DNA from: Escherichia coli
GTDB lineage: Bacteria; Pseudomonadota; Gammaproteobacteria; Enterobacterales; Enterobacteriaceae
Assembly: GCF_016903815.1 (NCBI RefSeq)
Contig: NZ_CP069973.1
Length of the DNA: 64,000 nucleotides
Reading direction: 5' to 3' (one strand)
The notes beneath the pieces are model-generated. The model did not search any database and was not told the DNA's origin. It worked only from the letters and a program-made list of their open reading frames with translations. Every line of letters starts with the position of its first letter. The stretch's first letter is position 1. Shown here piece by piece: positions 10,980 to 17,557 of this stretch. A program made the translations under genes and the position numbers.

Positions 10980-12620
10980 ATGGCAATCCACAATCGTGCA
11001 GGCCAACCTGCACAACAGAGTGATTTGATTAACGTCGCCCAACTGACGGCGCAATATTATGTACTGAAACCAGAAGCAGGGAATGCGGAGCACGCGGTGA
11101 AATTCGGTACTTCTGGTCACCGTGGCAGTGCAGCGCGCCACAGCTTTAACGAGCCGCACATTCTGGCGATCGCTCAGGCAATTGCTGAAGAACGTGCGAA
11201 AAACGGCATCACTGGCCCTTGCTATGTGGGTAAAGATACTCACGCTCTGTCCGAGCCTGCGTTCATTTCCGTACTGGAAGTGCTGGCAGCGAACGGCGTA
11301 GATGTTATTGTGCAGGAAAACAATGGCTTCACTCCGACGCCTGCCGTTTCCAATGCCATCCTGGTTCACAATAAAAAAGGTGGCCCGCTGGCAGACGGTA
11401 TCGTGATTACACCGTCCCATAACCCGCCGGAAGATGGTGGTATCAAGTACAATCCGCCAAATGGTGGCCCGGCTGATACCAACGTCACCAAAGTGGTGGA
11501 AGACAGGGCCAACGCACTGATGGCCGATGGCCTGAAAGGCGTGAAGCGTATCTCCCTCGACGAAGCGATGGCATCCGGTCATGTGAAAGAGCAGGATCTG
11601 GTGCAGCCGTTCGTGGAAGGGCTGGCCGATATCGTTGATATGGCGGCGATTCAGAAAGCGGGCCTGACGCTGGGCGTTGATCCGTTGGGCGGTTCCGGTA
11701 TCGAATACTGGAAGCGCATTGGCGAGTATTACAACCTCAACCTGACCATCGTTAACGATCAGGTCGATCAAACCTTCCGCTTTATGCACCTCGATAAAGA
11801 CGGTGCGATCCGTATGGACTGCTCCTCCGAGTGTGCGATGGCGGGCCTGCTGGCACTGCGTGATAAGTTCGATCTGGCGTTTGCTAACGACCCGGATTAT
11901 GACCGTCACGGTATCGTCACTCCGGCAGGTTTGATGAATCCGAACCACTACCTGGCGGTGGCGATCAACTACCTGTTCCAGCATCGTCCGCAGTGGGGCA
12001 AAGATGTTGCTGTCGGTAAAACGCTGGTTTCATCTGCGATGATCGACCGTGTGGTCAATGACTTGGGCCGTAAGCTGGTAGAAGTCCCGGTAGGTTTCAA
12101 ATGGTTTGTTGATGGTCTGTTCGACGGCAGCTTCGGCTTTGGCGGCGAAGAGAGCGCAGGGGCTTCCTTCCTGCGTTTCGACGGCACGCCGTGGTCCACC
12201 GACAAAGACGGCATCATCATGTGTCTGCTGGCGGCGGAAATCACCGCTGTCACCGGTAAGAACCCGCAGGAACACTACAACGAACTGGCAAAACGCTTTG
12301 GTGCGCCGAGCTACAACCGTTTGCAGGCAGCTGCGACTTCCGCACAAAAAGCGGCGTTGTCTAAGCTGTCTCCGGAAATGGTGAGCGCCAGCACCCTGGC
12401 AGGTGACCCGATCACCGCGCGCCTGACTGCGGCACCGGGCAATGGTGCTTCTATCGGCGGTCTGAAAGTGATGACTGACAACGGCTGGTTCGCCGCGCGT
12501 CCGTCAGGCACGGAAGACGCGTACAAGATTTATTGCGAAAGCTTCCTCGGTGAAGAGCATCGCAAGCAGATCGAGAAAGAAGCGGTTGAGATTGTTAGCG
12601 AAGTTCTGAAAAACGCGTAA
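10980..12620 (+). CDS. pgm: phosphoglucomutase
   Basis: 546 aa [12 protein letters not shown]...; active-site TSGHR (TPSHNP family) motifs; seqA-pgm arrangement as in E. coli. Confidence 0.95.
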
Positions 12621-12633
12621 ACACATTAAATAA

Positions 12634-12667
12634 GAAAAAGGGCGGTCGGAAGATCGCCCTTTTTTGC
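12634..12667. terminator. bidirectional terminator between pgm and potE
   Basis: Hairpin aagggcggtcggaagatcgccctt flanked by A- and T-runs. Confidence 0.7.
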
Positions 12668-12676
12668 TTTTCTTAA

Positions 12677-13996
12677 TTAACCGTGTTTATTTTTCAGTTC
12701 AAAGCGTGGTGAGACCAGACCATACAGTGTCCAACCGAGGAAGGTCACGATGGAACCGTATAGCATGGCTTCTTCCCCGGATGAGTACAGCGCATAAAAG
12801 CTGTACATCGCGCCAACAAAAGCAACAAAGTTTGCAACTTTCGCTTTTGAGGGGGGCACATTAGCGACCTTCTGAATAATGACTAATGCCGCCATTGACA
12901 GAATATACGGAATGATATTGGTCACCACGGCCAGGTTAACCAGCACGTTGAACTGACTGTTTAGCGACGGGCTAATCGTCATCAGCGCCAACCCGCTCTG
13001 GATAATCACAATGGTCAACATTCCCTGCACCGGTGCATCCACTTTGGTTACACGGGAGAAAATTTTAGGGAAGTAGCCTTCATCAGATGAAGATTTAAAC
13101 ACCTGGGCAATGGTGAACTGCCAGCCAAGCAGCGAACCGCAGCAGGACATCACCATCAGCGCCATAATGACTTTACCCACTTCTGGCGTGAACATCTGTG
13201 CGAAGGCCAGGCCAAATGGTGCCGTTGAATTTGCCAGCTCCATATTAGGCACAATCCCTGCAATCACGTTGGTGGAGACGATATAAATCACCGCCGCACC
13301 TAACGTACCGCCGAGTACCGCGATTGGCACATTACGTTCCGGGTTTTCCACTACATCAGTATTCGCACACGCAGACTCCAGACCAAGAAAAGCCCACAGC
13401 GTCATAGCGATGGAAGAACCTACCGCACTGAAGAACGGTGCATGATGCGGATTCCAGGAATCAACGTAAAGCGTCGGGCTAAACCAGAACCAGCCGATAA
13501 CGCACAGGCCTACCACCGGAATAATGACCCCCCACACGGTAATGCTACTGATTTGCCCGGTAATGCGCGCACCACCAAAGTTAGCCACGGTACAAATCCA
13601 CAGCACCCCGATGGTCGCAAGACCAATCTGCACTGGCGACAAACTCGCGCCGAGCAGTTCGGTGCCGTAACCAACCGCCGAAATAGCAATCGCGACGTTA
13701 GCAATTAGCAGTGAGACGCCGTAGGTATAGTTCGCCATAAAGTTCCCGGATTTACCGAAAGCATACTCCGCATAACCGCCCATACCGCCTGATTTACGGC
13801 TGAACATACCGCATTTTGCGAATGCCCATGCCAGTGCCATTGAGCCTACGGCTGTCACCAGCCAGGAAATAATTGAGATTGTCCCGACTTCGGCAAGCTT
13901 TGTCGGCAGCATGATGATACCGGAGCCCATCATGTTGACCATCGTCAGTATGGTTAACTGAACGACGCCCATTTTGTTCGATTTAGCCTGACTCAT
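12677..13996 (-). CDS. potE: putrescine-ornithine antiporter
   Basis: 439 aa polytopic APC-family transporter; its start overlaps the speF stop (ATGA). Confidence 0.95.
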   Translation of the reverse strand: MSQAKSNKMGVVQLTILTMVNMMGSGIIMLPTKLAEVGTISIISWLVTAVGSMALAWAFAKCGMFSRKSGGMGGYAEYAFGKSGNFMANYTYGVSLLIANVAIAISAVGYGTELLGASLSPVQIGLATIGVLWICTVANFGGARITGQISSITVWGVIIPVVGLCVIGWFWFSPTLYVDSWNPHHAPFFSAVGSSIAMTLWAFLGLESACANTDVVENPERNVPIAVLGGTLGAAVIYIVSTNVIAGIVPNMELANSTAPFGLAFAQMFTPEVGKVIMALMVMSCCGSLLGWQFTIAQVFKSSSDEGYFPKIFSRVTKVDAPVQGMLTIVIIQSGLALMTISPSLNSQFNVLVNLAVVTNIIPYILSMAALVIIQKVANVPPSKAKVANFVAFVGAMYSFYALYSSGEEAMLYGSIVTFLGWTLYGLVSPRFELKNKHG

Positions 13997-16191
13997 AATT
14001 TTTCCCCTTTCAACAGGGTGCTTTGCGCATCACGAGGCTTGATGACATAGCACCAAACTTGCTTACGACCATCATGTTCTTCGATATAGACACCCTGCAG
14101 CTCCGGTGCAAAACCTGGCAGCAGGTTGATCCCTTCTTCCAGAGCGCTGAAGTAACGCAAAACAGCACCACCCCAGATTTCACCCGGAACAACACACAGC
14201 ACACCCGGAGGATAAGGAAGCGCACCTTCGGCAGCGATACGGCCTTCTGCATCCGGCAGACGAACCAGCTCCACTTCACCGCGTAAATAGGCGTAGTTAG
14301 CTTCTTGCGGATTCATGCTGACGCGTGGGAAGTGTTCCTTACGGAACATCTCTTTTTGCAGTTGTTTCACGTTGTGGCGGGCATACAAATCATGCATTTC
14401 CTGGCACAACTGACGAAGGGTATAACCGGCGTAGCGCTCTTCATGCTGTTTGTAGATGGAAGGTAGCACTTCCGCCAGCGGCGCATCAGATTCCAGCAGT
14501 TTTTCGAAGCGTACCAGCAGGGCAACAAGTTGCTGAAGTTTGGCCATATCCTCCGCCGGAGTCAGCAGGAAGAGGATGGAGTTAAGATCGCATTTTTCCG
14601 GCACTACGCCATTTTCGCGCAGGAAGTTAGCAAGAATCGTCGCGGGTACACCGAATGTTTCATATTCGCCGTTACGTGCATCAATACCTGGGGTTGTCAG
14701 CAACAGTTTGCAAGGATCGACAAAGTATTGATTCTCTGCATAGCCTTCAAAAGAATGCCAGTGTTCCCCTGGTACAAACTGGAAGAAGCGCAGATCAACC
14801 GCAATTTGCGCTGTTTCATACGACTGCCAGGGTTTACCATCCACCAGTTCAGGTACGAACGGACGAATATGCTGACAGTTATCGAGGATCAGTTTGCGGG
14901 CATTAATGCCATTTACCACACAATCCATCCACATATTACGACCGCTGACACCTTCATGCATTTTGGCGTTGATATCCAGTGCGGCAAACAGCGGATAGAA
15001 CGGGCTGGTGGAGGCGTGCATCATAAAGGCGTTGTTCATGCGTTTGTGCGGTACATAACGCTGTTGCCCTTTGATGTGGCTGTCTTTTTTATGGATTTGT
15101 GAAGTTTGAGAAAAACCAGCCTGCTGTTTATGTACGGATTGCGTAACCAGAATACCCGGATCGTTCTCATTAAGATCCAGCAACAGCGGCGAACAGTCAG
15201 CCATCATCGGGATAAATTGCTCATAGCCGACCCATGCGGAGTCAAACAGAATGTAGTCACACAGATGACCAATTTTATCCACCACCTGGCGGGCGTTATA
15301 AATCGTACCGTCGTAGGTGCCTAACTGAATCACAGCGAGGCGGAAAGGACGAGCCTCTTTTGCCCGCTGCGGTGCGACTTCCGCGATCAGCTCACGCAGG
15401 TAACTTTCTTCAAAACAATGCGCATCAATGCCACCGATAAAGCCATACGGGTTACGTGCCGTTTCCAGATAAACCGGTGTTGCACCAGCCTGTAGCAACG
15501 CTCCGTGGTGGTTAGATTTGTGGTTATTGCGATCAAACAGCACCAGATCACCCGGTGTTAGCAGGGCGTTTAAAACCACTTTGTTAGAAGATGAAGTGCC
15601 ATTTAGAACGAAGTATGTTTTATCGGCATTAAACACTTTTGCCGCATGTTGCTGTGCAATGCATGGCGCGCCTTCGTGAATCAGCAGATCGCCCATTGCC
15701 ACATCCGCGTTGCATAAGTCGGAACGGAACAGCGTTTCTCCGAAGTACTCCACGAACTGATTCCCTGCCGGATGACGACGGAAAAACTCACCTCCCTGAT
15801 GACCCGGGCAGTCAAAAGCGCTATTGCCCTGATTGACATAATCGACCAGTGCGCGGAAGAAGGGCGGGCGCAGTTGCGTTTCATAATGGCTAGCAGCGGT
15901 TTCTAACTGACGTCCATAAAACTCTTTCCGTGATTCGCAATGCTCGAAGACACCAGAAATACGTGGCAGATATTCTGCTGGTACACGTTCTTCATTTGCC
16001 GTTGCAATAAAAACAGGAATGCCATAGCCAGTAGCGTCTATTTCATCGAGTTTTCCACGTTCAACATCATTGACTGATAAAATAATGGCGGCAACGTCAA
16101 TATAATTACTTTCGTCAATATTCACGCATGCACGATGAGTGGAAAAACAATCCGGGCAAGAACGGCTAACGGCAATTTTTAATTCTGACAT
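13993..16191 (-). CDS. speF: inducible ornithine decarboxylase
   Basis: About 732 aa PLP-dependent decarboxylase (start MSELKIAVS...); an in-frame ATG three codons upstream (16200) is an alternative start. Confidence 0.92.
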   Translation of the reverse strand: MSELKIAVSRSCPDCFSTHRACVNIDESNYIDVAAIILSVNDVERGKLDEIDATGYGIPVFIATANEERVPAEYLPRISGVFEHCESRKEFYGRQLETAASHYETQLRPPFFRALVDYVNQGNSAFDCPGHQGGEFFRRHPAGNQFVEYFGETLFRSDLCNADVAMGDLLIHEGAPCIAQQHAAKVFNADKTYFVLNGTSSSNKVVLNALLTPGDLVLFDRNNHKSNHHGALLQAGATPVYLETARNPYGFIGGIDAHCFEESYLRELIAEVAPQRAKEARPFRLAVIQLGTYDGTIYNARQVVDKIGHLCDYILFDSAWVGYEQFIPMMADCSPLLLDLNENDPGILVTQSVHKQQAGFSQTSQIHKKDSHIKGQQRYVPHKRMNNAFMMHASTSPFYPLFAALDINAKMHEGVSGRNMWMDCVVNGINARKLILDNCQHIRPFVPELVDGKPWQSYETAQIAVDLRFFQFVPGEHWHSFEGYAENQYFVDPCKLLLTTPGIDARNGEYETFGVPATILANFLRENGVVPEKCDLNSILFLLTPAEDMAKLQQLVALLVRFEKLLESDAPLAEVLPSIYKQHEERYAGYTLRQLCQEMHDLYARHNVKQLQKEMFRKEHFPRVSMNPQEANYAYLRGEVELVRLPDAEGRIAAEGALPYPPGVLCVVPGEIWGGAVLRYFSALEEGINLLPGFAPELQGVYIEEHDGRKQVWCYVIKPRDAQSTLLKGEKL

Positions 16192-16500
16192 TTTGTTCAT
16201 CTCTTTATTTCAGGTAATAGCAGGTCCTCAATTTCTCAAAGGAGAAATTGATCACGCCGGAAAAAAGCAAAACCCCACCGCTGATAAATAAATCAGTAGT
16301 TTGCTTTTTGTAGATGCAATAACCCAGACCAGCCCGGTAACTGGCTATACTCGTCATACCTCAAGTTGCAAGTGCTGCGACTCGAATTATTTAGAGTTTA
16401 AAAGGGTTAGCAGTATATGAGCACCGAGGAATACAGGTATTAACCTGTAATGCTTAAAGTCAGGGAGACCTGTACGTTGGGGTGCCCTTTAGTCAGAAGA

Positions 16501-16605
16501 CTAGCGGGCATTAAAGAAATGAAAGTCAAAACTATTACGATGGGCAAACTTCATGATATGGGTTGTCCGCCTTATATGAGGCATTAAGCGGTTATTATTT
16601 TCCAT
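16501..16605 (-). CDS. speFL: speFL, ornithine-sensing ribosome-arrest leader peptide of the speF-potE operon
   Basis: Direct reverse-strand translation: MENNNRLMPHIRRTTHIMKFAHRNSFDFHFFNAR (34 aa), closely matching the leader peptide I recall (HIRRTTHIMKFAHRNSFDFHFFNAR core); about 300 nt upstream of speF. Absent from the ORF track because it is under 60 aa. Confidence 0.85.
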   Translation of the reverse strand: MENNNRLMPHIRRTTHIMKFAHRNSFDFHFFNAR

Positions 16606-16799
16606 TTACCTTTACCTCTTGCTGTGTCAGTTGAAGGTAGAGTTATTCTATCCATGAAATGGCTATAATCTGTGAAGAAGATCAACAAAAAACGATCATA
16701 CCCCAGATAATAAATCATTAATTATGAATATTGCCATATTAGATGCTGTTTTGTTACTTAAATGTTGTAATTTTGTGTTTTATATTTGCGTTAAGAAAT

Positions 16800-16879: not shown

Positions 16880-17557
16880 TCAAAGCATAAACCGATACCC
16901 AATACCGGTTTCAGTAATGAAATGGCGGGGGCGAGCGGGATCCTGTTCCAGTTTTTGTCGCAGATGTCCCATATAAATACGCAAATAATGACTGTGTTCG
17001 ACCGCGTTTGGCCCCCACACCTGGTTAAGGAGCTGGCGCTGGGTGAGCACTTTTCCGGCATTGTTGAGCAGCACCGCCAGCAGGCGAAACTCAATTGGTG
17101 TGAGATGCACCTCTTCCTCACCGCGATGGATCACGCGGGCGGCTAAATCGACGGTAACATCGGAAAATTTCACCAGCGGATCGGGCGCAGCGGTGGCGGA
17201 GTGGCGACGTAAAGCGACGCGCAGACGGGCCTGCAATTCGCCAATGCCAAACGGCTTACTCAGGTAATCATCCGCTCCGGCATCCAGCGCGGCGATTTTG
17301 TCGCTCTCTTCGCTGCGTGCGGAAAGCACAATCACTGGCACTGCGCTCCACTGGCGCAGGTCGCGGATAAACTCAATCCCATCACCATCGGGCAGGCCGA
17401 GATCGAGAATAATCAAATCTGGCTTACGGGTAGCCGCTTCCAGCAAGCCGCGTTGCAGCGTTTCGGCCTCATAGACGCGCATCCCGTCGCCCTCCAGCGC
17501 CGTGCGCAGAAAGCGACGAATAGCCTGTTCATCTTCAACAATCAGAACGTTTGTCAC
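16880..17557 (-). CDS. kdpE: two-component response regulator KdpE (OmpR family)
   Basis: 225 aa; receiver domain (VEDEQ...DLGLPDGDG) plus winged-helix output domain. Confidence 0.95.
   Translation of the reverse strand: MTNVLIVEDEQAIRRFLRTALEGDGMRVYEAETLQRGLLEAATRKPDLIILDLGLPDGDGIEFIRDLRQWSAVPVIVLSARSEESDKIAALDAGADDYLSKPFGIGELQARLRVALRRHSATAAPDPLVKFSDVTVDLAARVIHRGEEEVHLTPIEFRLLAVLLNNAGKVLTQRQLLNQVWGPNAVEHSHYLRIYMGHLRQKLEQDPARPRHFITETGIGYRFML

Follow-up and report, generated by a model that had tools for sequence, protein, structure and literature searches.

The 34-codon open reading frame at 16501–16605 (minus strand) of the window, a 64,000-nt stretch of Escherichia coli DNA, is speFL, the known gene of the ornithine-sensing leader peptide, for which RefSeq already carries an annotation with the identical peptide. 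The surrounding sequence is very likely the native Escherichia speFL-speF-potE control region, and it would be expected to work as in K-12 and Salmonella. Sequence identity, conservation and predicted folds were obtained here directly, whereas stalling, Rho dependence and unmasking of the speF RBS are assigned by homology.

Translation of the minus strand from 16605 to 16501 yields MENNNRLMPHIRRTTHIMKFAHRNSFDFHFFNAR followed by a TAG stop, in exact agreement with the reverse-strand translation given in the initial annotation. The same frame is contained in the ORF list of the window as an ATG ORF of 34 aa, and it was assigned to speFL, the gene of the ornithine-sensing arrest peptide (34 codons plus TAG), by annotation (WP_001312672.1) and by Pfam and PDB matches. 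With 27.9 bits the peptide scores above the gathering score of 25 of Pfam PF10940 (‘Leader peptide SpeFL’), and 32 of its 34 residues are identical to those of the SpeFL chain in the stalled-ribosome structures PDB 6TBV/6TC3 (E = 1.7e-18). An NCBIfam search with the SpeFL peptide gave no match. Between 16150 and 16900 (751 nt) the window and E. coli strain 7/2 are 100 % identical in sequence; that strain has the same ORF annotated as speFL, WP_001312672.1, with kdpE upstream and speF downstream. The position is also that of the family, since the 34-codon ORF lies immediately upstream of speF on the same (minus) strand. In a collection of speF loci fetched from different species with the first 250 aa of SpeF as query (n = 80), speFL was found 5′ of speF in 75.

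The peptide differs from K-12 SpeFL (b4803, MENNSRTMPHIRRTTHIMKFAHRNSFDFHFFNAR), which begins with MENNSRTMPH, only by the substitutions S5N and T7L. The NNNRL N-terminus, described at first as slightly different, thus corresponds to real differences from K-12. Residue counts were made for 73 enterobacterial speFL genes, comprising the species genes with a MENN or VENN start. Position 5 is occupied by N in 61 of them and by S in 12, and position 7 is the most variable one, with L as the commonest residue (L 20, K 10, T 9, F 9, A 8, S 7, others). The exact N-terminus MENNNRLMPHIRR is present in Kluyvera, Mixta, Atlantibacter, Siccibacter, Citrobacter freundii and Enterobacter. Judged by these counts, N5 and L7 of the window peptide are the consensus state and not oddities, and S5/T7 of K-12 is a derived minority form that is common to some Citrobacter-like taxa. 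Lysine at position 19 is Escherichia-specific and also found in K-12, compared to methionine in 68 of the 73 species.

All residues reported as essential between Pro9 and Phe31 are kept, namely Pro9, His10, Ile11, Arg12, Arg13, His16 and Phe20/26/28/30/31, which bears out the initial statement that the functional core is preserved. The HIRRTTH ornithine-recognition motif of codons 10–16 (16558–16578, minus strand) was read from the sequence as H10-I-R-R-T-T-H16, preceded by P9, and conforms to the HIRRXXH motif defined in 10.1101/604074. The effector domain of codons 20–31 (16513–16548, minus strand), with roles taken from the same work, contains all five phenylalanines of the hydrophobic core (Phe20, Phe26, Phe28, Phe30 and Phe31). 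Residues 1–7 of the N-terminal hairpin segment, MENNNRL, have the same length as in K-12 with E2 and N3 kept. Two consecutive rare Arg codons, AGG CGG, are found at 16572–16567 as in K-12, AGG at codon 12 being shared by 50 of 75 species genes, and the UAG stop of speFL is likewise retained.

Two readings under which this gene would not act as an ornithine sensor have to be weighed against these data. That the ORF is a fortuitous and functionless short frame gains some ground from the abundance of short ORFs (112 of at least 25 aa in 9 kb), but the PF10940 score above the gathering score, the 32 of 34 residues shared with a structurally characterised peptide and the retention in 75 of 80 species loci leave it a practically negligible chance; the conservation data have already refuted it. 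The other reading accepts the gene and supposes that its response to ornithine is weakened or lost through S5N and T7L, which would leave speF uninducible or constitutively attenuated here. It draws on the location of both substitutions within residues 1–13, the sensor hairpin of K-12 SpeFL, and on the loss of stalling in K-12 upon removal of residues 1–7 (10.1101/604074), from which the N-terminus is seen to be of importance. For the contacts of this segment, however, Herrero del Valle et al. name Glu2 and Asn3, and neither residue 5 nor residue 7 (10.1101/604074). N5 in 61 and L7 in 20 of the 73 species genes, the latter the commonest residue at a hypervariable position, together with the occurrence of the same N-terminus across many genera, also argue against a loss of sensing. 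Furthermore, the peptide is invariant among diverse window-type E. coli: genomes up to 5 % apart in DNA encode the identical WP_001312672.1, as would be expected under purifying selection. We consider impaired sensing very improbable. Since both are consensus residues at variable positions, S5N and T7L should not impair the sensing of ornithine, and the preferred reading of speFL as a functional sensor is kept in the following.

Downstream of speFL both genes of the operon are intact. speF encodes the inducible ornithine decarboxylase of 732 aa (13993–16191, minus strand; TIGR04301 with 1436 bits, cut-off 1310; start as in strain 7/2). potE, the gene of the putrescine-ornithine antiporter of 439 aa (12677–13996, minus strand), overlaps the speF stop by 4 nt and was recognised by NF007938 (856 bits) and TIGR04299 (850 bits), both above their cut-offs. 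With these two models passed and the Pfam and PDB matches of speFL, the initial description of an intact speFL and leader upstream of speF-potE holds. The spacer between speFL and speF amounts to 309 nt (16500–16192) when counted from the annotated speF ATG at 16191, in accordance with the roughly 300 nt given before. An in-frame upstream ATG at 16200 serves as start in the mechanical ORF list. Compared to K-12, a 2-nt change within 16191–16200 (minus strand; ATGAACAAAATG vs ATGAAAAATG) sets this ATG in the frame of speF, resulting in a possible SpeF of 735 aa; RefSeq annotates the 732-aa form. At the other end of the operon, the pgm-potE junction (12620–12677) is without about 1.66 kb present in K-12 (ybfP and the pseudogenes ybfG and ybfI), and the distance from pgm to potE in the window is about 57 nt.

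A consensus promoter scan of the minus strand revealed no full or canonical sigma-70 match. The −10 hexamer and the start site were therefore placed from conservation and from the mapping in Salmonella, where transcription starts 31 nt upstream of the orf34 ATG (PMC6386406). By homology, TAGAAT at 16645–16650 (minus strand) is the probable −10 hexamer of the speFL-speF promoter, located in a TGGATA(G/A)AAT sequence conserved in 10 aligned species, and transcription of speFL-speF would start at about 16638. Some 45–60 nt 5′ of the inferred speFL start the motif GATCGTTTTTTGTTGATC with two GATC sites was noticed (16680–16697, minus strand). It is conserved in Escherichia, Salmonella, Citrobacter and Kluyvera and could represent a putative regulator-binding or Dam-sensitive site. 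RefSeq genomes of the window haplotype also carry a ‘hypothetical protein’ of 44 aa called by PGAP (WP_001299172.1 or WP_001295874.1) at 16584–16718 (minus strand), extending over the promoter and the speFL start. As a second uORF this frame was rejected: transcription is inferred to start only 3′ of its first codon, no family model matched it, and its apparent conservation coincides with the promoter elements. The annotated hypothetical protein is probably a spurious call.

The leader RNA from the inferred start to position +30 of speF folds with −136 kcal/mol (z = −4.5 vs shuffles). Minimum-energy folds and conservation reveal a hairpin spanning the stop codon of speFL (16483–16510, minus strand), which corresponds to the hairpin at which RNA polymerase pauses in the published model; its seven consensus pairs form in 33–34 of 34 unique enterobacterial leaders. 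In Salmonella, Rho terminates transcription about 21 nt past the stop codon (PMC6386406), and with the position taken from Salmonella +157, Rho-dependent termination would be expected near 16480, just 3′ of this hairpin. A C-rich and G-poor tract at 16360–16600 (minus strand) was found by sliding 60-nt composition, with C/G ratios of 1.4–2.1. In terms of composition only, such a tract would suit a rut region overlapping speFL and continuing downstream of it.

Farther along the minus strand, the folds contain the hairpins CAGG/CCUG (16472–16461) and UACAGGU/ACCUGUA (16449–16432, extended to 16454–16420), the UACAGG stem being paired in 26–34 of the 34 leaders. Taken together (16420–16472), they match the ‘DS’ hairpin region described for the Salmonella leader (PMC6386406) in position. 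They are followed by CCAG/CUGG (16345–16328), with compensatory pair types across leaders, by CUGAU/AUCAG (16296–16281) inside an A-tract/U-tract stem (16309–16262), and by a 10-bp hairpin UCAAUUUCUC/GAGAAAUUGA (16251–16228), all three resting on both folds and conservation. Five local hairpins, the one at the stop codon and four others, are conserved in the 34 unique enterobacterial leaders, and several pair types occur in the CCAG/CUGG stem. A further helix, 16409–16404 with 16325–16320, encloses the CCAG/CUGG hairpin together with the hairpin of an ERIC repeat described below. Finally, the whole-leader minimum-energy folds include a long-range helix of 22 bp in which speFL codons 24–31 (16534–16512) pair with 16207–16196 and 16189–16180, so that the Shine-Dalgarno and start region of speF (16180–16207, minus strand) is predicted to be paired; the consensus fold of the concatenated uORF and RBS segments places this helix in a different register and gave no covariation support for it. 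A helix joining the 3′ part of the uORF to the speF RBS has been confirmed in Salmonella by compensatory mutations (Ben-Zvi et al., PMC6386406). The corresponding helix in the window is predicted to be inhibitory and to be opened by translation of speFL.

What the spacer contains is a set of five conserved hairpins, a pairing partner by which the speF RBS would be sequestered, and a short ERIC repeat. Two elements ascribed to it in the initial annotation have to be revised. It had been supposed to hold the Rho-utilisation site, whereas the published model places this site so that it overlaps with speFL (10.1101/604074), and an RNA antiterminator, of which there is none in this model, where termination is prevented by the stalled and queued ribosomes (10.1101/604074). 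Rfam provided no family for the leader, only sub-threshold matches. Among these, isrH (17.3 bits, gathering score 45) at 16346–16402 (minus strand) falls exactly on the short ERIC block, and is most likely due to repeat-like sequence rather than to an sRNA; this suggests that the isrH model contains ERIC-like sequence.

By analogy to K-12 and Salmonella, regulation would proceed as follows. Transcription would start at about 16638, and ribosomes would translate the 34 codons of speFL. At low ornithine, the ribosome would terminate at UAG, leaving the C-rich rut region over speFL exposed, and Rho would end transcription near 16480, beyond the stop-codon hairpin. At high ornithine, the HIRRTTH loop of the nascent peptide would hold one ornithine against the 23S rRNA, and the Phe-rich C-terminal domain would compact and block release factor action, resulting in a stall on the stop codon. 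Following ribosomes would then queue behind the stalled one and cover the rut region, allowing RNA polymerase to continue into speF-potE. A ribosome on the 3′ part of speFL would also prevent the pairing of this segment with the speF RBS.

The spacer of 309 nt compares to one of 257 nt in K-12. An additional 51 nt, without counterpart in K-12, lie at 16401–16351 and belong to a block at 16345–16401 (minus strand) that, from its dispersal and its alignment with ERIC, is listed as a short, internally deleted ERIC/IRU repeat. Of 5426 complete E. coli genomes, 5425 contain matches to a 61–71 nt query, with a median of 4 places in each genome and a maximum of 9; dispersed copies occur also in K-12-type genomes that lack the block at speF. 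Both of its ends align with both ends of the full 127-nt ERIC at dxs-yajO (local score 66; shuffles 21.5 ± 2.9). The internal deletion of about 72 nt, which is the same as in the copies at yafP and yehK, removes the central conserved core with the ERIC1R/ERIC2 primer region; the primer sequences were located in full ERIC copies. Both termini and the multiple dispersed intergenic copies expected of ERIC are present, and the core is missing. The junctions read ...CCCTT|TTAAACTC and ...GACGAGTATAG, compared to the empty K-12 site CCCTT|GTAT, and the assignment of a TA duplication is ambiguous. The block folds as a self-contained hairpin (16397–16349) with −15.1 kcal/mol alone. On account of the shared termini, the yafP/yehK-like deletion and the score of 66 against shuffles, the 51-nt block is, by sequence, a short-form ERIC/IRU element. 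It resembles the known ERIC/IRU/RU-1 repeat (127 bp; PMC2229807) in these termini, in its dispersal in E. coli, in its transcribed intergenic location and in its stem-loop fold, and differs by the lack of the central ~72 nt including the ERIC1R/ERIC2 core.

A diverged homologous block at the same leader position is present in E. albertii and in ‘E. coli E69’. Since the block occupies the same site in E. albertii, the insertion must be old and tolerated, and the ERIC insert is most likely a tolerated, ancient insertion. Full ERIC copies were observed elsewhere in the speF leader of Citrobacter sp. On2M, Kluyvera genomosp. 1 and a Pluralibacter MAG, and unrelated inserts of about 120–125 nt in Salmonella arizonae, Salmonella diarizonae and C. 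freundii. Within the fetched loci, leader inserts lie at about 2185–2311 (L005) and 2195–2320 (L022) and in the spacers of L014, L015 and L046. The Salmonella (~125 nt) and C. freundii (~120 nt) inserts were tried as ERIC candidates and dismissed, as their scores of 24–27 are not significant against a null of ~22 ± 3.6. The speFL-speF spacer falls into length classes of ~255, 305 and 375–380 nt, and inserts have landed repeatedly in the speF leader. Much of the ‘ring’ described for Salmonella by Ben-Zvi et al. would therefore be lineage-specific.

Outside the control region, window and K-12 are collinear and 96–99 % identical over about 12 kb on each side. Identity decreases to 61–91 % from about 15600 to the kdpE stop at 16880, in a sharply bounded, hyper-divergent block that takes in the intergenic region between kdpE and speF as well as the initial ~600 nt of speF. 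Of 5426 complete E. coli genomes, 5043 have speFL and 383 lack it. The identity of speFL to the window is strictly bimodal, with at least 95 % in 3335 genomes, 90–95 % in 2 and 80–90 % in 1706, so that the window type accounts for ~62 % and the K-12 type for ~31 % of complete genomes, percentages that describe the database and not natural populations. In the divergent block, the window type shows its highest identity, 88–90 %, to E. albertii and E69. The K-12-type block shares no more than 83 % identity with anything sampled, and the K-12 leader is similar to Citrobacter-like leaders (82–85 %). With E. albertii and E69 nearest to the window type, and nothing sampled near the K-12 type, the window haplotype is, on sequence grounds, the native and majority Escherichia form; the K-12 haplotype has the look of an old acquisition from beyond Escherichia.

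Several irregular loci were met on the way. Some E. coli genomes (noted for LAM_HS, L001, and for the matches H16 and H21) have IS1 at this locus: one is without speFL, speF and potE and has IS1A beside kdpE, and in others IS1 lies within the speF control region. A 2.2-kb contig labelled as a MAG of Collinsella sp. (L013) is 100 % identical to the K-12 speFL-speF region and almost certainly represents E. coli contamination of the MAG.

The functional data on the speFL system come from K-12 or Salmonella alleles. As the window leader is only ~82 % identical to that of K-12 and carries an extra hairpin where the Salmonella ‘ring’ sits, which are points against an unchanged mechanism, its quantitative behaviour could differ from that of K-12. 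In a stronger form, the ERIC hairpin and the ~18 % divergence of the leader would change mRNA decay, Rho read-through or the induction threshold relative to K-12. Such a change is suggested by the position of the 51-nt structured insert in the part equivalent to the ‘ring’, which in Salmonella affects RNase G-dependent decay and whose deletions alter arginine- and RNase G-dependent stability (PMC6386406), by the orientation-dependent effect of Yersinia ERIC elements on the stability of flanking transcripts (PMC2229807), and by the sharp bimodality of the two haplotypes without intermediates. Against it stands the retention of all five conserved hairpins, of the rut-like tract and of the anti-RBS pairing; moreover, the insert folds alone in a junction that leaves the enclosing helix (16409–16404 with 16325–16320) unbroken, and in other genera the leader accommodates complete ERIC copies or different inserts of ~120 nt. 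We regard altered regulation as a rather unlikely outcome; if true, the K-12 model would not be quantitative for most E. coli. Equally tentative, and doubtful as a whole, is the wider proposition that E. coli maintains two ancient, non-intergrading haplotypes of promoter, speFL, leader and ~600 nt of speF, an imported K-12 minority and a majority with the ERIC hairpin, which differ in their ornithine, arginine or acid induction thresholds or in mRNA stability for putrescine synthesis. Control by speFL as in K-12 and Salmonella remains the preferred reading of the region.

With regard to its content, speFL in the window is an ordinary and already known, annotated system, and the finding mainly confirms this annotation. 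The ERIC within the leader and the control-region dimorphism, with K-12 carrying the atypical haplotype, are modestly interesting by-products; in the literature library searched, neither these nor natural variation of speFL were found to be described. For generalisations from K-12, caution is advised, since about two thirds of the speFL-bearing complete E. coli genomes carry the other haplotype, whose leader is 52 nt longer, contains ERIC and differs from K-12 at about one sixth of the aligned positions.

Of the known systems, K-12 SpeFL (b4803; 6TBV/6TC3; Herrero del Valle et al., 10.1101/604074) is shared in locus (kdpE-speF), in its 34 codons and in 32 of 34 residues. It differs from the window by the two residues exchanged in S5N and T7L, by a DNA identity of 85.7 % in speFL and ~82 % in the spacer, by the spacer length (257 vs 309 nt) owing to the short ERIC insert, by a kdpE-speFL spacer that is ~40 nt longer in the window, and by the strong divergence of the first ~600 nt of speF. 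The orf34 leader of Salmonella (Ben-Zvi et al. [quoted passage not shown] In contrast to the window, the Salmonella subspecies sampled carry F7 and M19 in the peptide, and the spacer of 379 nt contains a different insert of ~125 nt at another site (ERIC score 27 vs a null of 22.6 ± 3.6). TnaC of tnaCAB is similar in the metabolite-dependent arrest of termination on a leader peptide and in hiding rut from Rho, an analogy drawn in 10.1101/604074, yet it belongs to a different family, an unrelated peptide with tryptophan as ligand and another binding site.
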